Assembly (NCBI GenBank): GCA_951406725.2
Contig: OX597824.1
Coordinates: 2,666,001 to 2,730,000, forward strand
Reading direction: 5' to 3'
Length of the DNA stretch: 64,000 bases
DNA from: Octopus vulgaris
Lineage: Eukaryota
Both the position numbers and the translations under genes were made by a program. Of this stretch, positions 23,284 through 62,812 are shown in pieces. Position 1 is the first letter of the stretch, and every line of letters starts with the position of its first letter. The notes under the pieces are model-generated. The model was not told where the DNA came from. It made no database searches and worked only from the letters and a program-made list of their open reading frames with translations.

Positions 23284-23478
23284 ATGTTCTTCTGGCATGT
23301 TTTTTGTGTGAAGATCCTACTGCTTTCTTGCATGGTCTTTCATAGGTTGGCATACAGTGTGAATGATAACTTGTGCGCCAATAATCATCTTATTCTTCTT
23401 CCTAAGGAAATATACAAACAATGTAATATCGTCATTTCTAAAAAAGATGCACGGAAACCGCCAACAGTGAAAGCTCCG
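23284..23478 (+). CDS. PEBP-family gene copy 1, coding exon 1 (signal peptide plus two-Cys N-terminal segment)
   Basis: MFFWHVFCVKILLLSCMVFHRLAYSVNDNLCANNHLILLPKEIYKQCNIVISKKDARKPPTVKAP, 65 codons. Phase-0 donor CCG|gtaggt. Paralogous exon at 52118. Confidence 0.85.
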
Positions 23479-25020
23479 GTAGGTTATCCATGAACAATGC
23501 TAAAATTTTGTCTCATTTAGGCCATCAGTTTGTGAAAAGACGATGAGTTGATACCATCGTCCCCTTGCTTGATTGCTTCTTTATTTTATCGATCTGGAAA
23601 GGCTGAAACGCAAAGGTGACACTGTGTAGGGGATTTGAATGTAAATAGTTGGAAAGCATGTTTCTCGATGTTTTAACAATTCTGCTAGTTCGGCGCCCAA
23701 ATGGTTTCTAAATTAAGTACAACACCAGCAGTTTTAAGATGAGGTGATAAGTAGGTGCCACAAATTCCACTACTTGACAGCTGCTTTAATTCATTTCGAC
23801 ATCCAAGGGAATGAAAAGCAAAGTTAACCCTGGCGGAGTTTTTACTCGAAGTCTGAAGAGCCGAACAAAATTGTAGGTGTTACGCTGGTCACTAACCTTC
23901 ATTATTTGTCGTCTTTTATAAAGCGACATCATTGTATAATACCGAAACATTTCATGTGGTTATGTCCACTGCTCGAGCTTGCTTCTTTCTGTAAATGAAA
24001 AGCCACTGTCCAATGGTGTCTTCCTCTCGTCCAGGATCGCCCGGCTGATCATACTTTTTAAAAACGTTTGTTGATTTGAACTGGAGTGGGATACTGCAAC
24101 TTCTCATCTTACAGTTTGTGCCTCTGAAGAAAGTCGCTCGGATCTAGTTGGTTGGGTTGCCAGCATTTCAAAAATTAAAGTTTATCGAAAGTTTAAATAT
24201 TTGGCACAATAATATACTTTTCCAAGCTGAATTGCTGGAGTTATTTCACTTTCTCCAGAAAAATGTTTCTAAAAAGTTAGAGCGGTTTAAGTTTGATCAT
24301 TTTCATCCCGTCAGGAAAGAAGATTTGGAAACAGTCATTTTGGGCGTATTTTGTCGTTAATATTTGTAAACAGCACGTGCTCTGAAGTTTGGAGCATTCA
24401 ATATGCATTTAACGCGGTAGAACGAACTTAATAGATTTACGCTTGTTACTATGGAAACAGGAATCAGTTTGTCTGTGGCTTCCGATTGGCTAAAATAACC
24501 AAAATGTTCTGCCTTTAATTGCTAATAATCCTTTATTTATTGATTTATAGCGAAAACGATGCTCCCGTGCTTCATTAGCCAATAAAAGTGTATCATTACA
24601 CTGAATATGAAATCATTTCGAACAGAATTTGATGCTGGCTGCCAAACCGAATAGATCCAATCGGTCTTTCTTGGGAAGTGTACTGACGCCAGAGCTAATA
24701 TATCACCCTCGTACACAGGTCACGTGAGAGCTCGATGAGATCTCAAAGAGAGTCGAACGTTTCGGGTCATTTAATTACGTTAATTGAATTTACTTACGTA
24801 AAGCTCAAATGACGATAACAATTTTTTTCCTCCGATCTTCAAGCTGCGTTGAAAAGATGGACTTGACTCCAAAAATTAACATTCAAACACTTCCTGGAAA
24901 ATTAACTTATCAAATTTATTGAGTCAGAGAGATCGACACGGACTATTATTATTCTTCTTGGATTCCGGATGTTATCCCATAATTGTCATACATTTATTAA
25001 ATAATATGTTTAGATAACGT

Positions 25021-26605
25021 ACTTGGTCGAAAACCATGCTGGGTATCACTCAGCAAGTTATTTTCCTCAAGGAATGCGATTAGTTTCTTTCTGACTATCC
25101 GTTCCATGACTTTGCTGATGTGTGAAGTCAGAGATATATGCCTTTAGTTTTTGGCATCTGCTCTACTTCCCCCTTTATGTATTGGGCATATTATTCCCTC
25201 CTTCAGCTTGCTTGGCAGTTTGCCATTCGCAAGAAAGCTCTGGAAGAGAATCTTGAGAGGTTTTGCCAGGGCATGCTTACACGCTTTGAGGAGGATTGCT
25301 GGGAAACCATCTGGACCAGCAGTTGAGTTTGTGTCCACTTCATCTATGGCTAGTAGGACATCTTCTTCGCTAATGTCAATACATTCTATTGTAACCGCCT
25401 CGCTGGTTATAGGTGAGGCGACAAAGAAATCCACTGGTTCGTTCACTTGTCTGTGTTCCAACGGGGTGGTAAAGACACTTTTGAACTGGTCATTCAGCAT
25501 CTCACTGATCTTAGTTGGACTGTCTGTGAGGGAGCCATCCTTTTGGAGGAGGGGTCCTATCTTGTAGTGCACTGAGACTGTTTCTTTCGCGTAATGAAAG
25601 AAGGCCTTTGGGTTTGATTTAATATTTTTTATAACACATGCTTCTTTGTCTGCTTTCTCCTTCACATAGGATTATTGCAGCCTTTTTTCGATCTCCATCA
25701 GTGTTGTTTTCAGGCGGGACGTTTCGCTACTTTTGGGATGTTGGTTGAGACGATTTGCAACCTTCGTCCGTCGTCTCATGAGGATCTTCCTGTCTCTTGG
25801 AATCTTGCTCCTATTTGTTTTGGCCTTGTGCTCTGGGACATATGTCTGGCATACGGCTTGCACAGAAGACATGAAACATTCTAGTTTCATGTCAATGTCT
25901 GGTGTGGAGAGACATTCCGGCCAGTCCTCTCTGAGGATCTCTTTTTGGATCGATTTCCAATCTGCTTTGTGGAAGTTCATATTGGAGAGATTTTGGGTGC
26001 TTCCTTTAGGCTGTATATCTCTGGTTACTTTTGGCCCAAACATAGACAGCTCTATTATGTTGTGATCCGAAACTAATGTCGGTGTCACTTTCACATCATG
26101 AATGATGTCTATATTGTTCGTGAAGCAGAGATCCAGAATGTTATTTGCCCTTGTTGGCTTGAGTACAACTTGCTCCATGAATAAGGCGTTGGTGAGGTTG
26201 AGCAGGGACTCCACCTGTACTTGCTTGCAATGATTAATTCCTGAGAGTATGAGACCTTCAGGCCATTTGACGTTGGGGAAGCTGAAATATGGTCACGTGG
26301 TGTTCCAGATTCATGAGGATTTCTTTAATTCTTGTGAGGCAATCTTCAAACTTGCCTATGTGATTTGGGGCATCTGGTGGGCAATATGTATTGCATATGA
26401 CTATATTATGTTGTCTTATGTATACAATTAGAGTGTCACATACCGAATTTGAGTATGTCATCAAGACCTGGGGTGTGAGGTCATCTCGGATGTATACAGC
26501 AACTCCACCATGGCTCCTTTCCCTTCTGTCTGTTCGCAGTATGGCATAGTTTGGTATGTGTACTTCTGCGTCTTCTATATCAGGGCTGAGGTGAGTTTCC
26601 ACGAG
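25021..26605 (-). mobile_element. CR1-type LINE fragment (APE endonuclease to start of RT) in PEBP intron 1
   Basis: Motifs ETHL..I.D.EVHIPNY...R.DR..RSHGGVAVYI, PTRANNILDLCF, SDHNII, AGPDGFPAILLK and PIHKGGSR, frameshifted. Confidence 0.9.
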
Positions 26606-26644
26606 TGCTATGCATAGGGCTTGATTGCATATATATATATATTT

Positions 26645-26888
26645 ATAACAATTATTAAGGGTTTAGCAAACATGTTGCTAGACCACATACCGAAAAAATT
26701 AGAAATAGCAGCCAAAAGACCGTTATTTCTTTTCGCTACAAAATATGACTCCACAGACGACCCTCTCTGTAACTCACACAGGCAAAAAAGAAAGAAGGAA
26801 AACAATGAAATCAAACAGTCTTCGGTTAAATGTTTCGGTATGTGGTCTAGCAACTTGTTTGCTAAACCCTTAATTATTGTTATAATTA
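26645..26888. repeat. Inverted repeat, ~50-bp arms
   Basis: ataacaattattaagggtttagcaaacatgttgctagaccacataccgaaa pairs with tttcggtatgtggtctagcaacttgtttgctaaacccttaattattgttat. Confidence 0.8.
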
Positions 26889-26909
26889 TATATAAAACTT
26901 CTTGTATAA

Positions 26910-27268
26910 GAGTGGTTGTATACTGTCAATCTAACAAGAACGTGACAGTAGGGGGTACACCACCGCTGTATAGCCCTAGGAAGCATCGAACGCCTCCTGA
27001 TGGCTTTGACACATTTTTCCCTGTGTCCTTATATACATATACGAAGGGGAGACAAACACCCCGGCTGCCGAAACTGCATCTAGGGACACGTGTTTCAGGA
27101 TCGTTGTCCTTCATCGGCCTAGAGTAGCAGACACCTTCGTATATGTATATAAGGACACAGGGAAAAATGTGTCAAAGCCATCAGGAGGCGTTCGATGCTT
27201 CCTAGGGCTATACAGCGGTGGTGTACCTCCTACTGTCACGTTCTTGTTAGATTGACAGTATACAACCA
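26910..27268. repeat. Foldback with ~130-bp near-perfect arms and a hammerhead motif in the loop
   Basis: About 26910-27046 is the reverse complement of about 27135-27268. Confidence 0.85.
27080..27122 (-). ncRNA. Minimal type I hammerhead ribozyme-like motif (U4C core variant)
   Basis: The minus strand reads ctagg-CCGATGA-agga(caacga)tcct-GAAA-cacgtg-TC-cctag: a 5-bp stem I, 4-bp stem II, palindromic stem III and GUC triplet. Confidence 0.65.
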
Positions 27269-27450
27269 TTCTATCGCCCCACCACCGTGCATGTCTCTAC
27301 GAGAGATTTAGAAATTCAATATTTCTTATTCTTGTATAGGTTTTTACCGAATATGGTTCCTTTCCATACCGAAACTACTTGGTAAAATTTATTAATTATA
27401 AATTAATAATTTTTTACCCTATATCTATAATAATAATAATAATAATAATA

Positions 27451-27995
27451 GCAGTACCAGGCAGTGGCTCTCATGGTTTCTGATCTTAACTGATTGGAAG
27501 TGTTATCATGTACATTGTTTTGTCTTGGTATAAAAGATGGGCTACAGCAAATATTCTGCTCAATACCACAGATTTGCTTGTCAGTTGTTTGACCTTAACC
27601 AGTTGAGCATGTCCCTTAGTGGCTGACGATATGTGCATCTCTGATCACGAGCAGAAGTAGTGGGGGAGCATCATAGCCATGTGTTGAGAGGGATTATTTG
27701 GGGTTTGAATAGTTCACCTCTGGAAACATGGGTGGTTCTTTCAACATCCTTAAACAACCCTTATTCAGGGACCGTTTGAGTGGGATGGACTACTCAACCT
27801 GAAGAAAATTCTAACTGGGCCCCACCTGCAAGGTCATGTGCTGTTTATCTTGATATGAGATCACCATGCCGCGCACATATGGTTGTGATGCATGTGCCTG
27901 GTGTACCTTTATCAGACGGGTAGTCATGATGGGTATATTGGGCTTCGTATATTTTACCCCAGTGTCACTTTGATGGCATGAACTGCTCTCTCACC

Positions 27996-27996
<1 letters not shown>
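27451..27996 (+). mobile_element. Interspersed repeat bounded by (AAT)n, probably the 3' part of a non-LTR element
   Basis: A complex segment with (AAT)n tracts on both sides, arranged like the R4-type insertions elsewhere in the window. No protein motif recognised. Confidence 0.45.
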
Positions 27997-28068
<72 letters not shown>

Positions 28069-28385
28069 TATATATATATATATACAGTGATGGTTTGTTG
28101 CCAACTTAATGTGGCAGTTCCAGGAAATGGAAGAATGCTACTGCTATTTAGCACCAGGAAACACCGTTTCCAGTTGGTTATGTGACACAAGCGTTCTGTG
28201 TCCTTAAGTTTCCAAACAGGGGAGTAAAGCACCTCCAACCAGCAAAGCCAGCATCAAGAGTCATTATTGTTATAATTATATATAAAACTTCTTGTATAAG
28301 TTTTTACCGAATATGATTCTTTTCCATACCGAAACTACTTGGTGAAATTTATTAATTATAAATTAATAATTTTTTATCCTATATC

Positions 28386-28458
<73 letters not shown>

Positions 28459-28470
28459 GTGTATATATAT

Positions 28471-28541
<71 letters not shown>

Positions 28542-28586
28542 CATATATACACACACATATATATATATATATATGTGTGTATATAT

Positions 28587-28690
<104 letters not shown>

Positions 28691-28778
28691 GTACCAACAT
28701 CCTTCCTAATATGCTCGAATATGTGTATGATTTAATGAAATAAATTATTCCTAATTTTAAAATCTTTTGTTTTATTAG

Positions 28779-28886
28779 GCAAATGCAACTCTGAAGTCAA
28801 ACATTTATATGCTGCTTATGATTAATCCGGACGAATTTCCGCATTCTGACTTAGCCTATCCGCTTTGGATAAAGACACACATCACC
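28779..28886 (+). CDS. PEBP-family gene copy 1, exon 2
   Basis: ttttgttttattag|...|gtaagt, 108 nt, phase 0/0. [36 protein letters not shown] aligns to the PEBP 'YTL.M.DPDAP...HW.V.NI' block. Confidence 0.85.
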
Positions 28887-29569
28887 GTAAGTATAATTAG
28901 ATATTTTTTAGTAAATGTATTTTTTATGCAGATGTGTGCATTCATACATGCAACTGTTAATTTTAGCACCAATATGCGTATATAATTTCACAAATTGGAA
29001 CGCACCGCGCACACACATACACACACTTTAACAGATTCATACATGCAAAGATACCTACAGATGCACACAGATGCACATATTCATACACACAAATACATGC
29101 AAACACACACATGCATACATACATATATATAGTGAAGAGATTCAAGAAATTGTTTAACTGATAAATCATACTGAATATTGAGAAATTTCACTAAAACCTG
29201 CGCTAAAACATTATGAAAGAAATCAAATATTTCTGTAATTTACCGGTTTCAACACTTTTAAAACATATTCTTTCTAATTAATGATGTTGTCATAATTTCA
29301 TGATTATCTTGTCGGTGATAATGCTTTAATTTCATATGTGGTTGTTGATAATATCAGGGGAAGAGTTAAATAAATATTTACAGTAACTGGGGAGGTTAAT
29401 AAGTTGAATAATTTTTTCGTTCCTTATTAATAGTAATATTATTTTTGGTGAAGTAGCGAGTTGGACGTTGCCGATCTTCTTTGTGCCTCCTGCCGTGATA
29501 TGGGTTCATCCGGTATTGCCGATAAAAACTGAATGTCTAGACGTATTTTGAAGACTTCCATGTCCACAC

Positions 29570-32071: not shown

Positions 32072-32344
32072 CAGAGAGCAAGAGAGAGAGATGTATATAT
32101 ACACACACACATATGAGAAAGAATGAAGGGAAAATAAAACACTCAGCATAGTTAATTACGCAAGTTAATTACGACAATACTTGAATAAATGAAGATACGT
32201 TATTCAATGTATATTACTCTTGTGGTGAGAACAACAACATCAAAAACATTTCTATATGATTACGTAAGTATATGTTTGTGTGTGCGTATTTATGTATGGA
32301 AGCATGTAAGTATCAATGTATTCTTAATGAAATTGTAATTGCAG

Positions 32345-32393
32345 CCCACACAACTGAAAGCAGGCGTAACAGCAGATAAAAAAGACGTGATAC
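32345..32393 (+). CDS. PEBP-family gene copy 1, exon 3 (49 nt)
   Basis: taattgcag|...|gtaagt. It encodes PTQLKAGVTADKKDVI plus 1 nt; phase 0 in and phase 1 out fit exons 2 and 4. Confidence 0.8.
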
Positions 32394-32899
32394 GTAAGTA
32401 ATATTTTCATTGTTACTCAATAGTGATACATGCATGTACATACATACATACACACATACAGACAAACATACATACATATATGCATGCATGCGTGTGTGGG
32501 CACGCGTGAGGTTATCAATATAATTTGTTGTTCCGTTAAGTAAATAAACAAAAATCTACGCCATACAAACACGATCCAGTGAGAGATAAATATCATTGAA
32601 TGTGCACAGAATAAAGATTCGAGCTGGTAATAGTTTCTTGTTTTGTACCTCCAAGCAATCTCAGGCTCTGAGCGCATGGTTCGTTCTATTTCTGAAGAGA
32701 ATAGACCATATGCTCAGAGCCTCTGGATTGCTTGGAGACACAAGGCGTGTTGTAAAAAACCTGTTTGTAAAAAGCCTGTCTAGAGCCGTATCTTCCTACT
32801 ATTGTGTACATTAAATGATATGTATATGTAATAACACTATACTTGTTCCACGTCCTCGTGTTGTGTTTACTCTTTGTGTTTTCATGTTTGGATTAACTT

Positions 32900-35111: not shown

Positions 35112-38100
35112 AGGGGCCAAACACAGAGGGGACAAACAAGGACAGACAAAGGGATTAGGGGCTAAACACAGAGGGGACAAACAAGGACAGACAAAGGGAT
35201 TAGGGGCTAAACACAGAGGGGACAAACAAGGACAGACAAAGGGATTAGGGGCTAAACACAGAGGGGACAAACAAGGACAGACAAAGGGATTAGGGGCTAA
35301 ACACAGAGGGGACAAACAAGGACAGACAAAGGGATTAGGGGCTAAACACAGAGGGGACAAACAAGGACAGACAAAGGGATTAGGGGCTAAACACAGAGGG
35401 GACAACAAGGACAGACAAAGGGATTAGGGGCTAAACACAAAAAGGGGACAAACAAGGACAGACAAAGGGATTAGGGGCTAAACACAGAGGGGACAAACAA
35501 GGACAGACAAAGGGATTAGGGGCTAAACACAAAAAGGGGACAAACAAGGACAGACAAAGGGATTAGGGGCTAAACAGGACAGAAACAGGGGGACAAACAA
35601 GGACAGACAAAGGGATTAGGGCTAAACACAGAGGGGACAAAAAGGACAGACAAAGGGATTAGGGGCTAAAACACAAAAAGGGGACAAACAAGGACAGACA
35701 AAGGGATTAGGGGCTAAACACAGAGGGGACAAACAAGGACAGACAAAGGGATTAGGGGCTAAACACAAAAAGGGGACAAACAAGGACAGACAAAGGGATT
35801 AGGGGCTAAACACAGAGGGGACAAACAAGGACAGACAAAGGGATTAGGGGCTAAACACAGAGGGGACAAACAAGGACAGACAAAGGGATTAGGGGCTAAA
35901 CACAGAGGGGACAAACAAGGACAGACAAAGGGATTAGGGCTAAACACAAAAGGGGACAAACAAGGACAGACAAAGGGATTAGGGGCTAAACACAGAGGGG
36001 ACAAACAAGGACAGACAAACGGATTAGGGGCTAAACACAGAGGGGACAAACAAGGACAGACAAAGGGATTAGGGGCTAAACACAGAGGGGACAAACAAGG
36101 ACAGACAAAGGGATTAGGGGCTAAAAACAGAGGGGACAAACAAGGACAGACAAAGGGATTAGGGGCTAAACACAAAAAGGGGACAAACAAGGACAGACAA
36201 ACGGATTAGGGGCTAAACACAGAGGGGACAAACAAGGACAGACAAACGGATTAGGGGCTAAACACAGAGGGGACAAACAAGGACAGACAAAGGGATTAGG
36301 GGCTAAACACAGAGGGGACAAACAAGGACAGACAAAAGGATTAGGGGATAAACACAGAGGGGACAAACAAGGACAGACAAAGGGATTAGGGGCTAAACAC
36401 AGAGGGGACAAACAAAGACAGACAAAGGGATTAGGGGCTAAACACAGAGGGGACAAACAAGGACAGACAAAGGGATTAGGGGTTAAACACAGGGGACAAA
36501 CAAGGACAGACAAAGGGATTAGGGGCTAAACACAGCGGGGACAAACAAGGACAGACAAAGGGATTAGGGGCTAAACACAGAGGGGACAAACAAGGACAGA
36601 CAAAGGGATTAGGGGCTAAACACAGAGGGGACAAACAAGGACAGACAAAGGGATTAGGGGCTAAACACAGAGGGGACAAACAAGGACAGACAAACGGATT
36701 AGGGGCTAAACATGGAGGGGACAAACAAGGACAGACAAACGGATTAGGGGCTAAACATGGAGGGGCCAAACAAGGACAGACAAAGGGATTAGGGGCTAAA
36801 CACAGAGGGGACAAACAAGGACAGACAAAGGGATTAGGGGCTAAACATGGAGGGGACAAACAAGGACAGACAAAGGGATTAGGGGCTAAACACAGAGGGG
36901 ACAAACAAGGACAGACAAAGGGATTAGGGGCTAAACACAGAGGGGACAAACAAGGACAGACAAAGGGATTAGGGCTAAACACAAAAGGGGACAAACAAGG
37001 ACAGACAAAGGGATTAGGGCTAAACACAGAGGGGACAAACAAGGACAGACAAAGGGATTAGGGGCTAAACACAAATAGGGGACAAACAAGGACAGACAAA
37101 GGGATTAGGGGCTAAACACAGAGGGGACAAACAAGGACAGACAAACGGATTAGGGGCTAAACACAGAGGGGACAAACAAGGACAGACAAAGGGATTAGGG
37201 GCTAAACACAGAGGGGACAAACAAGGACAGACAAAGGGATTAGGGGCTAAACACAAAAAGGGGACAAACAAGGACAGACAAAGGGATTAGGGGCTAAACA
37301 CAGAGGGGACAAACAAGGACAGACAAAGGGATTAGGGGCTAAACACGGAGGGGACAAACAAGGACAGACAAAGGGATTAGGGGCTAAACACAGAGGGGAC
37401 AAACAAGGACAGACAAACGGATTAGGGGCTAAACACAGAGGGGACAAACAAGGACAGACAAAGGGATTAGGGGCTAAACACAGAGGGGACAAACAAGGAC
37501 AGACAAAGGGATTAGGGGCTAAACACAAAAAGGGGACAAACAAGGACAGACAAAGGGATTAGGGGCTAAACACAGAGGGGACAAACAAGGACAGACAAAG
37601 GGATTAGGGGCTAAACATAGAGGGGACAAACAAGGACAGACAAAGGGATTAGGGGCTAAACACAGAGGGGACAAACAAGGACAGACAAACGGATTAGGGG
37701 CTAAACACAGAGGGGACAAACAAGGACAGACAAAGGGATTAGGGGCTAAACACAGAGGGGACAAACAAGGACAGACAAAGGGATTAGGGGCTAAACACAG
37801 AGGGGACAAACAAGGACAGACAAAGGGATTAGGGGCTAAACACAGAGGGGACAAACAAGGACAGACAAAGGGATTAGGGGCTAAACACAAAAAGGGGACA
37901 AACAAGGACAGACAAAGGGATTAGGGGTTAAACACAGAGGGGACAAACAAGGACAGACAAAGGGATTAGGGGCTAAACACAGAGGGGACAAACAAGGACA
38001 GACAAAGGGATTAGGGGCTAAACACAGAGGGGACAAACAAGGACAGACAAAGGGATTAGGGGCTAAACACAGAGGGGACAAACAAGGACAGACAAAGGGA

Positions 38101-41100
38101 TTAGGGGCTAAACATGGAGGGGACAAACAAGGACAGACAAACGGATTAGGGGCTAAACATGGAGGGGACAAACAAGGACAGACAAAGGGATTAGGGGCTA
38201 AACACAGAGGGGACAAACAAGGACAGAGACAAACGGATTAGGGGCTAAACATGGAGGGGACAAACAAGGACAGACAAAGGGATTAGGGGCTAAACACAGA
38301 GGGGACAAACAAGGACAGACAAAGGGATTAGGGGCTAAACACAGAGGGGACAAACAAGGACAGACAAAGGGATTAGGGGATAAACACAGAGGGGACAAAC
38401 AAGGACAGACAAACGGATTAGGGGCTAAACATAGAGGGGACAAACAAGGACAGACAAACGGATTAGGGGCTAAACACAGAGGGGACAAACAAGGACAGAC
38501 AAAGGGATTAGGGGCTAAACACAGAGGGGACAAACAAGGACAGACAAAGGGATTAGGGGCTAAACACAGAGGGGACAAACAAGGACAGACAAAGGGATTA
38601 GGGGCTAAACACAGAGGGGACAAACAAGGACAGACAAAGGGATTAGGGGCCAAACACAGAGGGGACAAACAAGGACAGACAAAGGGATTAGGGGCTAAAC
38701 ACAGAGGGGACAAACAAGGACAGACAAAGGGATTAGGGCTAAACACAGAGGGGACAAACAAGGACAGACAAAGGGATTAGGGGCTAAACACAGAGGGGAC
38801 AAACAAGGACAGACAAAGGGATTAGGGGCTAAACACAGAGGGGACAAACAAGGACAGACAAAGGGATTAGGGGCTAAACACAGAGGGGACAAACAAGGAC
38901 AGACAAAGGGATTAGGGGCTAAACACAGAGGGGACAAACAAGGACAGACAAAGGGATTAGGGGCTAAACACAGAGGGGACAAACAAGGACAGAGAAACGG
39001 ATTAGGGCTAAACACAGAGGGGACAAACAAGGACAGACAAACGGATTAGGGGCTAAACACAGAGGGGACAAACAAGGACAGACAAAGGGATTAGGGGCTA
39101 AACATGGAGGGGACAAACAAGGACAGACAAACGGATTAGGGGCTAAACATGGAGGGGACAAACAAGGACAGACAAAGGGATTAGGGGCTAAACATGGAGG
39201 GGACAAACAAGGACAGACAAAGGGATTAGGGGCTAAACATGGAGGGGACAAACAAGGACAGACAAACGGATTAGGGGCTAAACATGGAGGGGACAAACAA
39301 GGACAGACAAAGGGATTAGGGGCTAAACATGGAGGGGACAAACAAGGACAGAGAAACGGATTAGGGGCTAAACATGGAGGGGACAAACAAGGACAGACAA
39401 CGGATTAGGGGCTAAACACAGAGGGGACAAACAAGGACAGACAAAGGGATTAGGGGCTAAACACAGAGGGGACAAACAAGGACAGACAAAGGGATTAGGG
39501 GCTAAACACAGAGGGGACAAACAAGGACAGACAAACGGATTAGGGGCTAAACACAGAGGGGACAAACAAGGACAGACAAAGGGATTAGGGGCTAAACACA
39601 GAGGGGACAAACAAGGACAGACAAACGGATAAGGGGCTAAACACAAAAAGGGGACAAACAAGGACAGACAAAGGGATTAGGGGCTAAACACAGAGGGGAC
39701 AAACAAGGACAGACAAAGGGATTAGGGGCTAAACATAGAGGGGACAAACAAGGACAGACAAAGGGATTAGGGGCTAAACACAGAGGGGACAAACAAGGAC
39801 AGACAAACGGATTAGGGCTAAACACAGAGGGGACAAACAAGGACAGACAAAGGGATTAGGGGCTAAACACAGAGGGGACAAACAAGGACAGACAAAGGGA
39901 TTAGGGGCTAAACACAGAGGGGACAAACAAGGACAGACAAAGGGATTAGGGGCTAAACACAGAGGGGACAAACAAGGACAGACAAAGGGATTAGGGCTAA
40001 ACACAAAAGGGGACAAACAAGGACAGACAAAGGGATTAGGGGTTAAACACAGAGGGGACAAACAAGGACAGACAAAGGGATTAGGGGCTAAACACAGAGG
40101 GGACAAACAAGGACAGACAAAGGGATTAGGGGCTAAACACAGAGGGGACAAACAAGGACAGACAAAGGGATTAGGGGCTAAACACAGAGGGGACAAACAA
40201 GGACAGACAAACGGATTAGGGGCTAAACATGGAGGGGACAAACAAGGACAGACAAACGGATTAGGGGCTAAACATGGAGGGGACAAACAAGGACAGACAA
40301 AGGGATTAGGGGCTAAACACAGAGGGGACAAACAAGGACAGACAAACGGATTAGGGGCTAAACATGGAGGGGACAAACAAGGACAGACAAAGGGATTAGG
40401 GGCTAAACACAGAGGGGACAAACAAGGACAGACAAACGGATTAGGGGCTAAACACAGAGGGGACAAACAAGGACAGACAAAGGGATTAGGGGATAAACAC
40501 AGAGGGGACAAACAAGGACAGACAAACGGATTAGGGGCTAAACATAGAGGGGACAAACAAGGACAGACAAACGGATTAGGGGCTAAACACAGAGGGGACA
40601 AACAAGGACAGACAAAGGGATTAGGGGCTAAACACAGAGGGGACAAACAAGGACAGACAAAGGGATTAGGGGCTAAACACAGAGGGGACAAACAAGGACA
40701 GACAAAGGGATTAGGGGCTAAACACAGAGGGGACAAACAAGGACAGACAAAGGGATTAGGGGCCAAACACAGAGGGGACAAACAAGGACAGACAAAGGGA
40801 TTAGGGGCAAAACACAGAGGGGACAAACAAGGACAGACAAAGGGATTAGGGGCTAAACACAGAGGGGACAAACAAGGACAGACAAAGGGATTAGGGGCTA
40901 AACACAGAGGGGACAAACAAGGACAGACAAAGGGATTAGGGGCTAAACACAGAGGGGACAAACAAGGACAGACAAAGGGATTAGGGGCTAAACACAGAGG
41001 GGACAAACAAGGACAGACAAAGGGATTAGGGGCTAAACACAGAGGGGACAAACAAGGACAGACAAAGGGATTAGGGGCTAAACACAGAGGGGACAAACAA

Positions 41101-42018
41101 GGACAGACAAAGGGATTAGGGGCTAAACACAGAGGGGACAAACAAGGACAGAGAAACGGATTAGGGGCTAAACACAGAGGGGACAAACAAGGACAGACAA
41201 ACGGATTAGGGGCTAAACACAGAGGGGACAAACAAGGACAGACAAAGGGATTAGGGGCTAAACATGGAGGGGACAAACAAGGACAGACAAACGGATTAGG
41301 GGCTAAACATGGAGGGGACAAACAAGGACAGACAAAGGGATTAGGGGCTAAACATGGAGGGGACAAATAAGGACAGACAAAGGGATTAGGGGCTAAACAT
41401 GGAGGGGACAAACAAGGACAGACAAACGGATTAGGGGCTAAACATGGAGGGGACAAACAAGGACAGACAAAGGGATTAGGGGCTAAACATGGAGGGGACA
41501 AACAAGGACAGAGAAACGGATTAGGGGCTAAACATGGAGGGGACAAACAAGGACAGACAAACGGATTAGGGGCTAAACACAGAGGGGACAAACAAGGACA
41601 GACAAACGGATTAGGGGCTAAACATGGAGGGGACAAACAAGGATAGACAAACGGATTAGGGGCTAAACATGGAGGGGACAAACAAGGACAGACAAAGGGA
41701 TTAGGGGCTAAACACGGAGGGGACAAACAAGGACAGACAAAGGGATTAGGGGCTAAACATAGAGGGGACAAACAAGGACAGACAAACGGATTAGGGGCTA
41801 AACATAGAGGGGACAAACAAGGACAGACAAACGGATTAGGGGCTAAACATAGAGGGGACAAACAAGGACAGACAAACGGATTAGGGGCTAAACATAGAGG
41901 TGACAAACAAGGACAGACAAAGGGATTAGGGGCTAAACACAGAGGGGACAAACAAGGACAGACAAAGGGATTAGGGGCTAAACACAGAGGGGACAAACAA
42001 GGACAGAGAAACGGATTA
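35112..42018. repeat. 45-bp minisatellite, ~150 copies, derived from a SINE family B 3' segment
   Basis: Unit ggggctaaacacagaggggacaaacaaggacagacaaagggatta. The array is continuous with the SINE body at 42015-42186 and the SINE tail at about 35092-35115. Confidence 0.97.
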
Positions 42019-42938: not shown

Positions 42939-43216
42939 CTTTCGAATCCCCTTCTCCGAATTTTGGAATCCATCGCTACCAGTTCTTACTGTATCCACAG
43001 AAAGGCAAAACTGTCATGTTAAAATCGAAGCTGGCATTAACTCGACTACTTCGTGTTGCTGAATTTGAAGGCTACAACAAGGTACGACCCGTATTCAGCT
43101 ATCAATATGTTATTGTTGCAGAAAGAGGCATTTCAACAGCTTCTGATTTGCTCAGCCAGAGGAATAGTTCTTTGTTTATGATAATTTTTACATTTTTTGG
43201 CTGGTTACTATCGTAA
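42939..43216 (+). CDS. PEBP-family gene copy 1, terminal exon 4
   Basis: Acceptor ttatttttccctccaccag|, phase 1. (P)FESPSPNFGIHRYQFLLYPQ matches the PEBP 'Y..P.P..G.HRY.FLL..Q' motif. It ends ...GISTASDLLSQRNSSLFMIIFTFFGWLLS*. The spliced product is 209 aa. Confidence 0.88.
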
Positions 43217-43292: not shown

Positions 43293-43849
43293 CATACATA
43301 CATATATATGGCGTATCGTCAGATCCCGGCCGACAGGATTTTAGGATCATGCAATACGCCATAAAGTTAAGCCCTTTATGGACGGGAAACCGAAGGTAAT
43401 CCCATAAACCGGTCTTCCCCATTTTTAATATGTACTGCTCTAAACCTTGGAGTGTGCTTCTACTTTCGGATTAATATTTTTAACAAACGATATATATATA
43501 TATATTTATATATATATATATATTTATATATTTATATATATGAACAATAAAACAAGAAATAAACAATAAAGTGTTATATCTTCTCTTCAATGTTCCTATT
43601 TTCATTCCGTGTTTTCTTTTCACCCGAACAAGTAAAGTGTGTGTAGGCAATGTGTTCTGTTGTTATATATTCTTATATTGCACTCTCTCCTAGTCCTTCT
43701 TTCTCTATACTGAGTCCTGCGCTCCTTTACGTATTTCTCTGCATTTTTTTCCTTCATTCATTTTCATTTAGAAATCCTTTTATTCCAGAGATAATTTATT
43801 ACATAGAAAAATGTGAGCAAGAGAAATGATATCCTTAAGATTACAAACC

Positions 43850-47614: not shown

Positions 47615-49345
47615 ACATCCAGCGTTAATCTTGGCCAGCAGAATGTCATAAAGGAATTAGACCCAGCGGAGAGCTACACATGCCTAGGGGTGATTGAAGG
47701 GGACGGAATCAGGCATTCAATGATGAGGGAAAGGATCAGAAGAGAATGTTATCGCAGGGTAATGACAATACTCAAGTCAGTGCTGAATGCAAGAAACAAG
47801 GTCGAAGCGATCAATAGTTTAGTCATACCAGTCGTGACTTACAGTTTCAATATCGTTAACTGGGCAATTACTGAAATATGTAATCGTGACAGAAAAATGC
47901 AAAAATTGTTGACTGCATAGAATGCACCACCCTAAGGCAGATATATTAGAAAATTATCTGCCAAGAAAGGAGGGAGGACGTGGAATTTTACAACTGGAAT
48001 TAACAATGAAGGTTGCTACAATTAGCCTATACACCTACCTGAAAAACTCTGAAGACTGCATCTTAAAACTTGTCTCAAAACAGGAAAACTAGAAAGCATC
48101 ATACTCAATAACAAAACAGGCAAAGGAATATGTAAGTGAATTCCAAATACAACAAATTCCAGAACAACACGTACTAGAAACATGCACAGAAATAGCTAAG
48201 CATATGAAAACCAGTGCTAAAACTGCTGCCTTAGATATTCTGAATGATAAATGGCAAGAGAAACCTCTCAATGGCAAATACCCAAAGAGAGCTTATAGTC
48301 CCGATGTTGACAAAGCCCTTTCTCATCAATGGCTAGTGGCTTCTGGCTTAAAATCAGAAACATAAGGATTTATCATAGCAGCCCAAGATCAATGCCTACA
48401 AACAAGAAACTACCAGGCTAACAAATTTAAAGAACGGTAGCTGTCCATCATGTCGTGTATGTCAGCAACAAAATGAAACCATTGAGCATGTTGTCTCCAA
48501 GTGCAGTCTTCTTGCGCCTACAGAGTACCTCAACAGGATGATAGAGCAATACAATGTATTTACTGGGTAATTTGCAAAGCCCTGAACCTGCCCCATGATA
48601 AAAACTGGTGGAAATACAAACCACCTCCAGTGCTTGAAAATGATCACATCTCACACTTCTGGAACTTCACCGTTAAAACTGACAGAAAGATAGATGCGAA
48701 TAGGCCAGACATTATATTGAAAGACTTCAGACAAACGTCACGCTTCCTCATTGATATGACTGTCCCAATCGATATAAACGGATCCGTCAAGACCTACCAA
48801 AAACTGAGCAAATATATAGATCTTGAAATAGAAATCAGCAAAATGTGGAACCTGAATATTAAAACAATACCTGTTGTTATAGGTACCCTAAAAATTATAA
48901 AAGGGCTGATTGCTACCTAGCTCAAATACCAGGAAAAACCCAAGTGGAAGAAAATCAAAAGATAGTGATCATGGAAACTGCCCATATCCTACATAAAATA
49001 CGGTCTATGTAATCTCAAAGTATTGTGCATCGTTAGCGAATGCTCGAAATTCACACAACGCGAATATAAAAGACACCATGACAATGTGGCAAGGATGATC
49101 CATTGGGACTTCTGTAGAAATCCCAGCTTATAAAGAGCAAAGGCATGGTATGAGAAAACTCCAGAAGGAGTCACCGGGAATGAGAATTGCAAATTTCTGT
49201 GGGACGCAATGATTCCAGTGCGATCACCTGACCAAACATCGGAAAAGGAATATTGTTGTGGTGAATAAAAGAAAAGAAAGAACATGTATGATAATCGACA
49301 CAGCATGACCTGTTGACAACAGGATCAATGTGAAAGTGGACAAGT
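47615..49345 (+). mobile_element. Two adjacent degenerate R4/Dong-like LINE fragments
   Basis: Motifs YTCLGVIE, LNARNKVEAINS, RKEGGRG, AAQDQCLQTRNY, CRVC..ETIEHVVSKC and ANRPDII..LIDMTVP..KLSKY. A second RLE fragment begins at about 49020. Confidence 0.85.
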
Positions 49346-52117: not shown

Positions 52118-52312
52118 ATGTTCTTCTGGCATGTTTTCCGAGTGAAGATCCTACTGCTTTCTTGCATGGTCTTTCACAGTTTGGCATACTATGCGAATTA
52201 CCTGTGCTCCAGAAAGGACCAGCTGATTCTTCTTCCTAAGAATATATACAAAAAATGTAAAGTCGACCTTAGTGTAGCTGATGTAAAGAAACCGCCAACA
52301 GTGAAAGTTCCG
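52118..52312 (+). CDS. PEBP-family gene copy 2, coding exon 1
   Basis: MFFWHVFRVKILLLSCMVFHSLAYYANYLCSRKDQLILLPKNIYKKCKVDLSVADVKKPPTVKVP. Same 195-nt length and CCG|gtaggt donor as copy 1. Confidence 0.85.
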
Positions 52313-56450: not shown

Positions 56451-56547
<97 letters not shown>

Positions 56548-56674
56548 CTGCTCGTTTAGCCACCGGGGTGGCGTCATTTGAAGAGGAAAACAATGCGAAG
56601 CGCTTTGTGACCAGCGATGTATAGCAACTTCTGATACCCCAGTCGGTCACGTGACATATATACATACATACATG

Positions 56675-56742
<68 letters not shown>

Positions 56743-56743
56743 C

Positions 56744-57352
56744 ACGTGGTCTCATCAATAAATATCTAGAATGTTGCTATAGTAACGAATCTATAGCACG
56801 TAGAGTAATGCCGCTTGGCACAAATTGACCTTGATCTCTGTTGTGCATGCGCTCTAACTTTTAGCATTTTAGCATTTTAGCTCACTTTCACTGCTTACAG
56901 CAGTGCTTGGAAGGAAGGTGTGTAGCGTGTGATCGTCCTATTGACCATAACAGAACGTTTTGCCAAAAGCTTGGTGATACTTGCTCAGAGGCCTACGCAA
57001 AGTTTTCAAAATGATTCAATTTTTCTCGACACAATCAGGGAGATCTTGTGCAACTGAAATTCGAGTGTCTCTTCAGTCCGCTGGAAGCAGTTTTGGCACA
57101 AACTGGGCAGACATGCATCACATACCCAAATCTTCAGTGATAATGGACTGAACTGAACCGTAACTAATCTGCACATCCAATGATAAGTCACAGAATACCC
57201 CTCACAGCTGCACGCATATCTGCAATGTTTTTCCCAGTTCTGCTGGTTGTGGGTCTCCCAGAATGTTCATCAATGTCGACACTATTTCGGCCATCTTGGA
57301 AACAGCTGAACCATTTGTGTGCCACTCATACACTCCTCTCCGTAAACTTTCA
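56744..57352. mobile_element. Second, truncated copy of the mariner-derived foldback element
   Basis: Homologous to 2900-3540, including the same inversion junction (gcaaagttttcaaaatg...tctcgacacaatca). Confidence 0.8.
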
Positions 57353-58687
57353 TACATATGGATATGTAAGTAAACTGATAAATAAACAGACAGGTACATA
57401 ACACACACACATACACACACAACTAAAGACTGAAATACATGGCCATATATACACATACACACTTCACACACGCACACGCGCAAGGACACATACGGAGACG
57501 CACGTCCATACATAACAGATGCGCTACATAGTCACACAAACTCATACACATAGACACACTCAAACATGAGCATACAAATACATGAATATGCAGAATACAT
57601 ACATACAAATGTACGCATATTCATACATATATATGCATACACATACACGCATACACACATACATACACATATTTTAAAATATATCAGTAAGTATATTAAT
57701 GTAATAATTTTATGAGCATGTAATTTGGATAAATATTGATTATTTACGAAATCTTAAGTACTATTCTCTTTTAAGACCTATTGGTGAATCCCGTTATACT
57801 AAAGTACTTGTTACTGTTTGTATTATCTATACACCCCGTTATCCCTAAAGAAAGATTAATCCACCAGTTAATATTCTAGTTTAGTTATTTGCTCATAGAC
57901 TTCAAGCGTTACACTGCAAAATGGTATGATTCAAATATATTTAGCCTTCTTTCCTCATCTCGAGCCCTTGTTCTTTTCTCTTCTCTTTTCTTTTATGTAT
58001 ATGTCTTCACTCTGCTGAAGCTCTATGTACCAGATTGGCTGTGCTATAAAATATGACGAATATTGTTCTCAGAATTTTCTTTGCAGGCGCTGATACACAT
58101 TGGAAGAAGAAACGGCTGTTAGATATGTTTAAGTTTTGTATTTAAAAAATTAATAATCGATGATAGTCAATTTGTTTGTTGATCAAGAAATTTCTCCATT
58201 TTCTGTTTAATTTAAATTTGATTCCAGATAAACACTTGTTTATTTGTTATTGCCTATATCCTATCAGCATAGTATGCTTGCATATGCATATATGCATGCC
58301 CCGGGTTAACATAGGTAATTTATACCGGTAGTAAAAACGGATATTCTTAGACGGTTATTCCAACCGCTAACTCTACTAAACTATATATAGGAGAAGGTAA
58401 CTCAGGTAACTGGGATAACTCCGACAAAGAACCTGCAGATGGTTACAGAAGAAGGTATACGAGGAAGACTTCTAAAGTGTGTAGTAAACCACAAACCTAA
58501 ACTGGTTACCGATGATGTTGACTTGTTCTTCTTTTCGGATTATGACTGCTGTTGCTTAGTGAGTGGGATTAACACAGTGCACAGCCTTTCCTCACTTAAA
58601 AAATACCCTTCTTGCACAGGCATTGCACGATAACAACATTGATTAAGCTTCGTGCAATGGCCATACTCGATAACGAGGGGGCAGCCA

Positions 58688-58718
<31 letters not shown>

Positions 58719-58784
58719 CTGGTAAAACGGGAAGATAACAACAGATAGAAACCTCAATATTATGTAAATAGAGGAATTTATCTG

Positions 58785-58960
58785 TAAATATAATATGTGA
58801 CAATTATTCGGTAGCCAAGATAAAACTATGAGTTTCGGATGCTGAGGTGGAAATCCACACCAACATCTCTTCAGTTGTCCGGCCATCGGATAAGCGGTAT
58901 GAAAAATGTTTCAATAGTTTTATCTTGGCTACCGAATAATTGTTACATATTATATTTACA
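58785..58960. repeat. Foldback with ~45-bp arms and a degenerate hammerhead motif on the minus strand
   Basis: Arms tgtaaatataatatgtgacaattattcggtagccaagataaaactat / atagttttatcttggctaccgaataattgttacatattatatttaca. The minus-strand loop reads CTGAAGA-gatgttg...cagcatc-cGAAActcatagTT. Confidence 0.65.
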
Positions 58961-59744
58961 TATATATATATATAAATCATCTCTATCCAGTATGATACGG
59001 ATGTTATATAGAAACACACATACACACACATATATGGACATTAAAAGACGGTAGAAAATGTCACCTCTACATTAAATGGAGCATCATTGCAAAAGCCAGA
59101 AAATAAAGAGGGCCGCGTAACAAATTTGGATTCTCTGTCACTGTAAAACTAAATGACATTCACTCGACAAGTTTCATCCTAAATATTAGGGGTGAAATCT
59201 CGCCCTACATATTGAAAAAGTATTTCACATTTAAGCACTTCATGAGGACACACCACATGCGCCACTAATGCCGCCACGATTGCCCCTTCTTTATACGAGA
59301 AATGGGAATATACATAACACAGGTACTCGACACACAGTAGAAATATTCCCCTTGACGAACTACCTCAGTACACAAGAATAAGAAGATCATATACACCCAG
59401 AATATAATATAAGATAGCGCAAACAAATTTACCATTTACGTGACTGTTTACCCAAAAGTCAAATTCAAGAGGGTTAACCAGTCGAAAGATGTCACCCAAG
59501 AGTAGCGCACATTGATTTATCGTTTCCTTTATGAGAATCTCCGAGAATTCAACGAGATTTACTGCTTTTATCCAAAATGGTGACGAACACAATTCCTCCA
59601 TTTGATCGGCTAAAAGAAATGAAGATATTAAAATATTTTTATTTTTCCCTTAACATGAAACTAACGTTAGCCTTATCACGCAAACAAAGAAATCCTATCC
59701 ACCAATGCGGTGCAGAGCACTCATTTTTATCGTTCCACATTTAC

Positions 59745-59791
<47 letters not shown>

Positions 59792-60053
59792 ATAATAAAT
59801 CCAAAAAATTAAGAGCAAAAAGAAACAGCGTGAGGGCGTGGTAAGTGATCGCAGATTAACGTGTGATGAGATATTTTCTTCAAGTATGCAATGAACCATC
59901 CGATCTAGCAATTGAAATCACAATCGCCAGATCTTTTGTGCAACATCTTAACCACTATATATATATGCATGCCAACTTCCTAATAAGCTCGTATGTTTGT
60001 ATGTATAATTTAATAAAATAAATTTTTCCCAATTAAAAAAATTGTTTTATTAG

Positions 60054-60161
60054 GCAAATGCAACTCTGCCAGCACAAACATATTTATTGCTCATGATAGA
60101 TGCGGACGAATTTCCGAATTCTGAAATGGTGTATCCGCATTGGATAAAGGCACATATGACC
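60054..60161 (+). CDS. PEBP-family gene copy 2, exon 2
   Basis: ttgttttattag|...|gtaagt, 108 nt. Encodes ANATLPAQTYLLLMIDADEFPNSEMVYPHWIKAHMT and retains the D.D and HW motifs. Confidence 0.88.
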
Positions 60162-60941
60162 GTAAGTATAATAGATATTTTTTGGTAAATGTATTATCCT
60201 TTTATGCAGATATGTGCATTCATACATGCAACTGTTAATTTTAGCACCAATATGCGTATATAATTTTACAAATTGGAACGCACCGCGCACTCACATACAC
60301 ACACTTGCACACATGCATACACGCAAAGATGCATACACATGCACACAGATGCACATATTCATACACACAAATACAAGCAAATACACACATACATACATAT
60401 AAATAGCGAAGAGATTCAAGAAATTGTTTAACTGATAAATCATACTGAATATTGAGAAATTTCACTGAAACCTGCGCTAAAACATTATGAAAGAAATCAA
60501 ATATTTCTGTAATTTACCGGTTTCAACACTTTTAAAACATATTCTTTCTAATTAATGATGTTGTCATAATTTCATGATTATATAACTAGCTCTTGTTGGT
60601 GAAAATGCTTTAAATTCGTATGTGGTTGTTGGTGGTATCAGGGGAAGAGTTAAATAAATATTTACAGTAACTGGGGAGGCAATATGTTCGATAATGTTTT
60701 CGTTCAATTATTAACAGTAATGTATATAGGAATTGAAATTGATAAAATCTGTGTGTTCATGTGCAGTGGCTAGTTTTAAATGAATGCATCTTTTCATTTA
60801 TCCGACATTGTGCATGTGTGTGTGTGTATGTGTGTGCTTGTATGTGAGTGTATGTGTGTGTAGTAAAATAGTAATACGTGTAAGATCTATGATATATTCA
60901 AGTGCGTATATAAATATATATATAAATATATTTATGCTATA

Positions 60942-61046
<105 letters not shown>

Positions 61047-61179
61047 ATAATATATATATATATATCACATATATGTATGTGCATATATAGGCATAGGCGT
61101 GGCTGTTTGGTAAGAAACTAGCTACCTAACTACAAGGTTCCGTGTTCAGTCCCATTGCGTGGCAACTTGAGCAAGCTTT

Positions 61180-62330
61180 AGGACAAGGCTCCAACACCGA
61201 TGCCAACTACTTTGATTTCAGCAGGGTTGATGATAAGATTCTCTTAAAAAACTATCGAACATTGGTGTCTGTGGAATGATGCTACAATGGATCAAGTATT
61301 TCCTGACTGACAGAACTTGACACGTTGTAGTCGAAGGAGTAAAATCAAGCCCAGCCAAAATTAGTAGCGGCATTCCACAAGGCACTTTGCAGATGATTCC
61401 ATGATCCTGAAGGTCATCAATGGATTGGGTGACTGGACATGCCTTCAGTCAGATCCAATAAGTGGAAAATTAATAATATGCTGCTGAACGAGGACAAATT
61501 TGAGTTAATCCACTTCGGAAAGTAGGATACCCTGAAACTCCCATAATCCCTTTCATCAGGTGAAACTCTCATAGCATCCAACAACATCAGAGACGACTTG
61601 GGAGTAATTGTGGACAACAACGTAAGCTGGGCCGCTCATGTAAACAGCAAAGTTGACATAGCCCGCAGAATGTGTTACTGAATTCTCAAAACTTTCCAGT
61701 CGAAAAATATTCACACAATTATCCTTCTGTTCTCCGTTTTTGCTTGACCCCACCTTGAATAATGTTGTCCACTGTGGTCTCCCCAAACGAAACAAAATAT
61801 CATGAAAGTTGAACCGTTTCAAAGGTCAATTACAAAATAATAGATGACATGACAGGCTTTGTCTATTGAGGTTGACAAGAAAAGCTCGAGCTTTATTCTC
61901 GGTTTGATCACTGCTTCATCTGCAGGATGTAGAAAATATATCAGCAGCATTGCCCAAATGATGTTCGTATCAACTTAAGATATATCCAGATTTGGGCCCC
62001 GTGCTACCCGCCCACACCATAGATCACATTCGCATCTCATAACAATAATACGGCACAATTAGTTCACCTCAATTGGCCCCGCTCTGTTTAATATTTCATC
62101 AAAACACATTAAAACAGAAATAGACATCATAAAGTTTAAGAACTCTTTGGACAAATTCATTCAATAAATGCCGGGCAAAGCTCTACACCCGGATATGTCT
62201 CCGTAAACCATAACCCTTTACTTAAGTGAGCCATGTTATCCGATTCCTGAACTGAATGGCTTCGCCAAGTGGTGCCATTAAGTTAGATATCACCTGGGCC
62301 AATACTGGCCGAAACCTATCTAAGTATCAA
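61180..62330 (+). mobile_element. Degenerate CR1-type LINE RT and 3' end
   Basis: MLQWIKYFLTDR..VVVEG.KSS....SGIPQG, FADD, LNEDKFELIHFG, DLGVIVD and PHLE.CCPLWSP, with many stops. Confidence 0.85.
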
Positions 62331-62763
62331 ACTATAAAATAGTGTACATTTAGACACAAGAGAAATTAGATTTAACATGTAATTTTACACGCTAGAAAAA
62401 GCAGTCAAAACGACCGAAACCACATTTAAGAGTTATTTCGAAGGGAATGAAGAATAAAAACCTTCATATTGTTAATTTTTTACGGTTATACATAGGATTC
62501 AAATTTTTTTAGCAAAAAAATAATAACACTTTGAATATGGCCCTCGAGAAAGAGTAAAAGTAATTACCCGATCAATGACGGGTATTACAGCTACTACTTG
62601 AATAAATGAAGATACGTTATTCAATGTATATTACTCTTGTGGTGAGAACAACAACAACAAAAACATTTCTATATGATTACGTAAGTATATGTTTGTGTGT
62701 GTGCATATTTATGTATGGAAGCATGTAAGTATCAATGTATTCTTAATGAAATTATAATTGCAG

Positions 62764-62812
62764 CCCACACAACTGAAAGAGGGAGTAACAGCAGCATCCA
62801 GCGATTTGCTAC
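62764..62812 (+). CDS. PEBP-family gene copy 2, exon 3 (49 nt); exon 4 expected beyond the window
   Basis: taattgcag|...|gtaagt. Encodes PTQLKEGVTAASSDLL plus 1 nt, with the same size and phase as copy 1. Confidence 0.8.

Follow-up and report, generated by a model that had tools for sequence, protein, structure and literature searches.

Organization of the PEBP gene array

The window, 64,000 nucleotides of Octopus vulgaris DNA, contains g1 and the first three exons of g2, the two genes that begin a tandem array of nine PEBP-fold genes located at 2.69-2.90 Mb of G000:C11 (Table 1). Exons were resolved in all nine genes, of which eight are intact and one (g8) is a pseudogene; exon 1 had nine matches on C11, and exon 4 had eight besides that of g1 itself. 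The larger array that had been presumed from the window alone was thereby confirmed, and four older relatives were located on C8 and C10. No additional array gene was found in the flanking regions C11:2646001-2666000 and 2905100-2930000. An exon-1 match on C21, with an internal stop and the other exons absent, was discarded as a family member.

Each array gene consists of four exons and codes for approximately 210 residues, arranged as a signal peptide, a PEBP-fold domain and a hydrophobic C-terminal tail. The tail is encoded by exon 4, which had been absent from the sequence-only reading of g1 and g2. The exon architecture given there was otherwise accurate, with GT/AG splice sites, phases 0, 0 and 1, and open frames in both genes; introns add up to 19.3 kb in g1 and 14.3 kb in g2. 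Frames, splice sites, the Cys pair and the N67 sequon are preserved in all eight intact genes, for which a signal peptide, an N-glycan at N67 and a Cys31-Cys47 disulfide are predicted. The conserved block that follows each gene is possibly a 3' UTR or a regulatory element.

Table 1. Position and properties of array features within the window.
Feature	Position	Strand	Properties
g1 exon 1	23284..23478	+	195 nt, phase 0; predicted signal peptide (~24 aa) and mature N-terminus with Cys31/Cys47 pair
g1 exon 2	28779..28886	+	108 nt; N67 sequon, strand 3, DPD-equivalent is NPD, H87-equivalent replaced by Leu
g1 exon 3	32345..32393	+	49 nt, phase 1; same sequence as g9 exon 3
Intron-3 block	32491..32734	+	99-100% identity among g1, g2, g8 and g9 only; probable conversion tract
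g1 exon 4	42939..43216	+	GxHR motif, hypervariable loop, S-T-A-S-D motif, hydrophobic tail (predicted GPI signal), stop
Non-coding block 3' of g1 stop	43558..43801	+	present after all nine genes, 96-99% identity to g1
g2 exon 1	52118..52312	+	mature part shares 98% identity with pseudogene g8 exon 1
g2 exon 2	60054..60161	+	DAD motif, His retained
g2 exon 3	62764..62812	+	g2 exon 4 lies outside the window (G000:C11:2732799-2733076)

Public annotation represents the array by chimeric gene models: P0001 joins exon 1 of g9 to exons 2-3 of g8, and P0002 is similar. A Pfam search of the genome missed every array locus but recovered three further PEBP loci. Eight of the 11 matches of an exon-1 profile search were family members, six of them from Octopus, a result that says nothing about absence from squid or cuttlefish; P0009-P0011 were left out as repetitive multi-stretch matches. 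When g1 exon 4 was searched against longer proteins, none of the 69 candidates matched.

Assignment to the PEBP family was upheld by relatives of the array. Five of the seven relatives scanned (P0004, P0005, P0006, P0008 and P0012) pass the 24-bit cut-off of Pfam PBP (PF01161), and single array exons gave weak matches (three of eight for exon 4, best E 0.0028; two of nine for exon 2, best E 0.01). A model of P0012, which is 32-39% identical to g1-g9, was built from an alignment that took in five canonical PEBPs (pLDDT 72). Foldseek matched it to FT (E 2.6e-9), human PEBP (E 1.0e-8) and CEN; the PEBP-fold carboxypeptidase Y inhibitor complex 1wpx was also among the fold matches. The Atlas structure match had a TM of 0.66, with PEBP4 as top feature match. 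The fold is thus shown for a close relative and would extend to the array proteins. The first fold model, made from six sequences, had been set aside (pLDDT 39).

Divergence, gene conversion and selection

The sequence-only reading had proposed that the coding exons of g1 and g2 diverge far faster than the introns around them, and its exon counts were reproduced. Exon 3 differs at 13 of 49 nucleotides and exon 2 at 25 of 108, with 14 amino-acid changes and four codons changed only synonymously; in exon 1 the changes affect two of the 24 residues of the signal and 21 of the 41 of the mature part. Alignment of 32178-32780 with 62595-63198, exon excluded, gave five substitutions and two indels. 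The description of quiet flanks held in part: the stretch quoted for exon 2 (29130-29305) lies in intron 2, approximately 245 nt downstream of the exon, and the 77 sites directly upstream are 0.16 diverged. Since just 1660 intron sites can be aligned between g1 and g2 (5.2% different), the near-identical blocks quoted are the most similar ones. For this pair NG86 yields a dN/dS of 0.95 when the whole gene is counted, with lower values for exon 2 (0.49) and exon 3 (0.74). Five of its 34 fourfold sites are changed, which exceeds the intron rate (P=0.03), so that conversion inflates the exon/intron contrast. By itself the g1-g2 pair is weak support for positive selection; the whole array is strong support.

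Among g3-g7, 532 of 6576 intron columns (8%) and 53 of 150 second codon positions of the mature region (35%) are variable, a fourfold difference. Fourfold sites vary at the intron rate (1/27), and five of 66 codons with an invariant amino acid carry a synonymous change. Mature-region NG86 dN/dS exceeds 1 in all 36 pairs of the array (1.02-2.29), and maximum-likelihood omega amounts to 0.43 in the signal, 1.80 in the mature region and 0.72 in the tail. Codon models, run with custom code and with sites called by naive empirical Bayes, gave an LRT of 78.5 for M2a against M1a on a single tree, 58.6 with a tree per exon and 33.9-37.9 when multi-base changes were added, terms which improve the fit. 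M8 against M8a gave 57.9, and g3-g7 alone 21.7-36.0. A site class with omega above 1 therefore survives modelling of recombination and multi-base changes, and dN lies above the neutral rate. Sites of high posterior (33-34, 73-74, 101, 112-116, 125-128, 140-146, 163-168) are scattered over many loops of the domain. CpG hypermutation was rejected as the cause of divergence, with 22 of 142 variable sites being of CpG type.

Exons of the array are mosaic (PHI-type test, p=0.001), and identical runs are Bonferroni-significant in six of 36 pairs. Conversion is therefore present, as the earlier reading had allowed, and it accounts for part of the extreme intron identity of g1 and g2, whose closest-matching intron blocks appear to have been converted. 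The intron-3 block is probably a conversion tract in which a piece of an older dispersed repeat is embedded; a young transposon was rejected, as copies elsewhere are 71-90% identical over short parts.

It could be argued that a relaxed mature domain, introns homogenised by conversion and multi-base mutations together raise dN/dS in the absence of positive selection. Conversion does occur, multi-base terms fit better, strongly constrained mature sites are few, one gene has decayed and the g1-g2 ratio stays below 1. However, fourfold sites in exons of g3-g7 change at the intron rate whereas second positions are four times more variable, introns can be aligned over 7-13.5 kb with 2.9-4.4% divergence, and eight genes have kept their frames, splice sites, cysteines and sequon. 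When exactly this scenario was simulated (14 null data sets with recombination and multi-base changes), the simple LRT gave nominal false positives in most of them, yet none reached the observed values (simulated LRT 3.1-29.2, observed 78.5; simulated omega 0.67-1.07, observed 1.59). The array data largely refute this explanation, which we consider very improbable. The positive selection that had been suggested is borne out for the array as a whole, and we hold it with high confidence for the mature domains. Tandem arrays are difficult to assemble, and small indels occur in a 45-bp satellite of g1 intron 3; an assembly or haplotype artefact is nevertheless hardly credible, given copies that differ by 3-11% in their introns and in intron length, occur in both orientations and lie within 264 kb without any Ns, and given an O. 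sinensis gene model that carries pieces of two copies.

Pocket residues, predicted anchor and candidate roles

Five PEBP residues (D71, D73, H87, H118, R119) are described as near-invariant, and replacements of this kind as exceedingly rare, in PMC8793217 (the latter in section 6). The quintet D, D, H, H, R is complete in g2, g4 and g9, and two to four of its residues are replaced in the other five intact genes (g1, NDLHR; g3 and g7, HEHNH; g5, HEHNR; g6, HEHSH). The rebuilt pocket of g3 and g5-g7 (His-x-Glu plus His) possibly binds metal.

GPI signals combine an N-terminal signal peptide with a C-terminal small-residue site, a polar spacer and a hydrophobic end that lacks a cytosolic tail. 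By eye and by hydropathy, the eight intact genes are consistent with this layout. C-terminal hydropathy peaks at 1.75-2.42 as compared to at most 1.40 in mid-protein, and S183, A185, S186 and D187 are invariant. Attachment is predicted near Ser183, and a GPI anchor at the cell surface appears likely. Predicted targeting signals agree with the extracellular PEBPs first proposed; the hydrophobic tail predicts tethering to the membrane and not free secretion.

On balance we favour a reading in which the nine genes, with mature domains that outpace their introns and a predicted GPI anchor, form a repertoire that binds or inhibits a variety of external partners. The array would have grown by duplication through unequal crossing-over; conversion would homogenise non-coding blocks and exchange exon pieces, and selection would maintain differences between mature surfaces. 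Tethered paralogs would most likely act, as binders or inhibitors, on targets from microbes or parasites or on proteases. PMC5157087 cites PEBPs as inhibitors of serine proteases. Should positive selection and GPI anchoring both be true, a defence or protease-interface role would be plausible at somewhat below even chance, a chemosensory accessory role rather unlikely, gamete-surface and gland or venom roles each slightly less likely again, and some other role the least likely.

Taken without these premises, the alternatives fare as follows. Toxin genes of snakes and cone snails likewise have exons that outrun introns, and array products might be shed secretion components of the salivary (venom) gland or tethered inhibitors that guard its lining from the gland's own proteases. 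The O. vulgaris posterior salivary gland proteome includes a PEBP4-like protein of 178 residues, 69.8% identical to O. bimaculoides XP_014771394.1 (PMC7693380, Tables S1 and S5). However, that match consists of one peptide and one spectrum and belongs to a gene outside the array: by similarity and length the protein is probably the tail-less relative C8c, which is 70-75% identical to P0006, isoform X2 of the XP_014771394.1 locus. Array genes encode a membrane tail, and among the matches listed the literature holds no octopus link between venom and PEBPs; we regard this role as improbable. Equally improbable is recognition by PEBPs anchored on sperm or egg, which would suit a hypervariable mature part between conserved signal and tail; vertebrates possess GPI-anchored fertilisation proteins. 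Species-specific change would be expected here, whereas an O. sinensis gene model equals g9 exon 1 at 65 of 65 residues, so that no fast change is seen at this exon between the sister species. The test is weak, since pseudogene g8 matches the same model nearly as well (50/51). A little less improbable, though still unlikely, is capture or presentation of small molecules by remodelled pockets of PEBPs tethered on sucker or olfactory epithelium. Pocket residues vary among paralogs, paralogs diverge whereas the O. sinensis piece stays unchanged, and one fruit-fly PEBP is a predicted odorant-binding protein according to PMC8793217; high-posterior sites, however, lie along the whole domain and not just near the pocket.

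Array genes had no matches in the supplements of PMC9712504 (three files), PMC10138644, PMC12919962, PMC10142993 and PMC7656900, where other identifiers may be in use. A run search with g1 exon 4 matched 24 runs, none on record as RNA, and is evidence neither for nor against expression.

Comparison with known systems

The PEBP family is usually very conserved, and the core function of its fold is still debated. Genes of this young array differ naturally in their pockets but share an almost identical gene background, which makes the role of pocket residues testable by paralog comparison. The array also lets selection and conversion be told apart in a clear-cut instance of exons that outrun introns, and it supplies a compact, unannotated candidate set for surface recognition in octopus, an animal about whose variable components of immunity and chemosensation little is known.

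PEBP1/RKIP, FT/TFL1/CEN and yeast carboxypeptidase Y inhibitor share the fold of the array but are intracellular and retain the five polar residues, from which five of the eight intact genes depart. Residues 140-146, the loop with the greatest variability, align with the CEN loop after the GxHR strand, which distinguishes FT activity from TFL1 activity. Mammalian PEBP4, a single-copy, soluble protein, resembles the array in its signal peptide, N-terminal cysteines and fold (g9 and rodent P0013, 35% identity over 113 residues, E 7e-15), but P0013 has no hydrophobic tail and the PEBP4 pocket is intact. The 13 octopus rows of a tree with long branches and few outgroups form one clade (100/99) apart from five other PEBPs including PEBP4, and orthology to PEBP4 is therefore not established.

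A literature search found no description of the octopus array, in agreement with the claim of an undescribed system; it is not a wholly new kind of system, because insects are known to have tandem as well as secreted expansions of PEBPs. The whitefly Bemisia tabaci has 202 PEBP genes, 127 of them in five clusters (PMC5157087), and the mealybug Planococcus ficus 46 predicted secreted PEBP-like proteins with one cluster of more than 10 (PMC13732444). These hemipteran expansions share tandem clustering with the array but arose in an independent lineage, and the parts of both reports consulted mention no GPI tail, selection test or pocket remodelling.

In gene pattern alone, the array recalls families of unrelated fold. 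Snake PLA2 and conotoxins combine a conserved signal peptide and introns with fast mature exons, birth-and-death and conversion; Ly6/uPAR clusters are GPI-anchored, and Ly6 has tethered members beside soluble ones. We tentatively suggest, as a possibility short of an even chance, an octopus counterpart of Ly6, namely a GPI-anchored, hypervariable PEBP recognition family with a rebuilt pocket, a soluble salivary-gland sibling and exon shuffling driven by conversion. Such a family, if real, would be a first surface receptor or inhibitor repertoire on a PEBP fold, and it could provide variable recognition for octopus immunity or for sensing by touch and taste.

The PEBP array and its relatives

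Searches with exons 1 and 4, together with 200 kb of neighbouring sequence, delimited a tandem array of nine PEBP-fold genes (g1 to g9; two plus-strand, seven minus-strand) on C11 of the 2.8-Gb genome G000, where the window spans positions 2666001-2730000. This is the larger array that the sequence-only reading had predicted from the pair g1 and g2. The exons measure 195, 108, 49 or 52, and 272-293 nt, and the fourth exon of g1 completes a protein of 209 residues. Eight genes are intact (predicted proteins of 207-215 residues), among them the pair g1 and g2, which the sequence-only reading had judged not to be decaying pseudogenes. In g8 a stop interrupts exon 4, whose acceptor is altered, and the tail is shifted. 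Publicly available gene models cover the array in chimeric or partial form; one from O. vulgaris agrees with g9 exons 1-2 at 101/101 residues.

Elsewhere in G000 there are four older relatives: one gene on C10 and three on C8 (C8a, C8b, C8c). O. bimaculoides counterparts show 88% identity for C10 and 70-75% for C8c. In the protein tree g1-g9 form one clade (97/99) nested in an octopus clade (100/99), and six of eight database family matches, i.e. all named ones, bear Octopus names. Database protein P0003 is an exon-1 read-through protein of array type; its mature part is 44-63% identical to g1-g9, which suggests a diverged array in another octopod.

Coordinates of features in the window and in G000
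Feature	Position	Remarks
g1 exon 2	28779-28886	
g1 exon 4	42939-43216	found by motif scan
AG near g1 start	23270-23283	
45-bp satellite	35112-42018	g1 intron 3; 153 copies, 96% matches
Non-coding block	43558-43801	plus eight copies on C11; ~340 nt past stop
Tandem duplication	11324-13218	period ~855 bp, 99% identity
Broken reading frames	20105-22869, 25144-26662, 48486-48920	one inside g1 intron 1; presumably akin to non-LTR retrotransposon fragments
Older family members	C8:33058288-33162809; C10:95768587-95777447	four genes
Other PEBP loci	C11:97744812, C2:187077353, C5:71270236	Pfam search; canonical motifs in the C11 and C2 pieces

The satellite is probably a dispersed repeat because translations from C21 and from the neighbourhood of C8c contain similar text. 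The non-coding block lies behind all nine genes with 96-99% identity, has only one partial copy elsewhere (C11:2907029) and is conserved above introns between the two clades. An AG five bases ahead of the start codon in all array genes may mark an upstream non-coding exon.

Selection and gene conversion

The g1-g2 differences counted by hand were reproduced for exon 1 (2/24 signal and 21/41 mature residues), exon 2 (25/108 nt; 14 amino-acid changes, and 4 codons changed only synonymously), exon 3 (13/49 nt) and the intron around it (5 substitutions, 2 indels). The segment 29130-29305, cited with exon 2, is actually a block within intron 2. This pair is insufficient to demonstrate selection because its NG86 dN/dS was 0.95 overall (mature 1.12, exon 2 0.49, exon 3 0.74) and fourfold sites (5/34) differed more than alignable introns (86/1660; P=0.03).

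Across the array, by contrast, positive selection was borne out. Mature dN/dS exceeded 1 in 36/36 pairs, which are non-independent, and second codon positions differed 2.3-9.3 times more than introns, again in 36/36. The young clade of g3-g7 offered the cleanest test, with introns alignable over 7-13.5 kb and differing by 2.9-4.4%. In the five-way comparison, 53/150 mature second positions were variable (35%, P 3e-20) as against 532/6576 intron columns (8.1%), 1/27 fourfold sites, and 1/24 (signal) and 3/27 (tail) second positions.

Custom-written codon models for the eight intact genes, g8 being excluded, gave an omega of 1.59 overall (LRT 78.5; signal 0.43, mature 1.80, tail 0.72) and an M8 versus M8a LRT of 57.9. 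Giving each exon its own tree lowered the LRT to 58.6, and permitting double and triple changes as well lowered it to 33.9-37.9. Fourteen null simulations that included recombination and multi-base changes yielded LRTs of 3.1-29.2, most of them nominally significant; none approached 78.5, and simulated omega was at most 1.07. Sixteen sites had a posterior >0.95 (naive empirical Bayes); aligned by eye to the secondary structure of the P0012 model (below), most appear to fall in loops, one group of them clustered at 140-146. In the array, adaptive diversification of paralogs on this normally conserved fold is real and statistically robust.

Gene conversion was also detected (PHI-type permutation, p=0.001). 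Exon trees conflict; exon 3 is identical between g1 and g9, exon 1 is 98% identical between g2 and g8, and codons 49-59 are common to g2, g3, g7 and g8, crossing clades. A 240-bp intron-3 block with 99-100% identity is confined to g1, g2, g8 and g9. Mosaic exons and this block argue that conversion would homogenise non-coding blocks and relocate exon pieces, with selection holding mature surfaces apart.

Predicted proteins and possible function

All intact array genes encode a hydrophobic N-terminus, two cysteines (the first at position 30 or 31, the second at 47) and an N67 sequon that never varies. The proteins end in a hydrophobic stretch, ahead of which lie the invariant residues S183, A185, S186 and D187 and a variable-length linker. 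By the usual rules, this layout is a predicted GPI signal. P0012, a full-length relative, scored above the Pfam PBP cut-off; its nearest Atlas entry is PEBP4, and its predicted structure matches FT and human PEBP. According to the review PMC8793217, five PEBP pocket residues are near-invariant, with multiple replacements in just two groups. Two to four of these are replaced in five of the eight intact genes. C10, C8a and C8b likewise have pocket replacements and tails, whereas C8c retains all five residues and lacks a tail.

The array combines a predicted membrane anchor with a remodelled pocket. As function we tentatively infer a set of surface proteins that face antagonists such as microbes, parasites or proteases; among the functional readings this one is favoured because of selection over many loops, birth-and-death and the tethering signal. 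PEBPs are cited as serine-protease inhibitors in PMC5157087, and one PEBP among the fold matches was solved in complex with carboxypeptidase Y. The array may instead have a chemosensory, gamete or gland role. The single piece of expression evidence comes from a relative outside the array: a proteome of posterior salivary gland from O. vulgaris includes a 178-residue PEBP4-like protein (one peptide, one spectrum; PMC7693380). Matched through O. bimaculoides locus identity and length, not sequence, it probably corresponds to C8c. Compared with the sister species O. sinensis (g9 exon 1 identical at 65/65, C10 gene almost identical), no fast per-locus change was seen, with low power since the pseudogene matches equally well.

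Full-text searches, chiefly of open-access papers, turned up no account of a PEBP array in octopus, of GPI-anchored PEBPs or of positive selection on animal PEBPs, and passages of PMC12919962 contained nothing pertinent. Tandem or secreted PEBP expansions have been described in whitefly and mealybug (PMC5157087, PMC13732444; also PMC10510153, PMC7079503), and PEBPs that are secreted occur in mammals, fly and gall wasp (PMC8793217).

Diversification of the array was found in mature regions flanked by slower-changing signal and tail. Its comparison systems we take to be the PLA2, conotoxin and Ly6 families.
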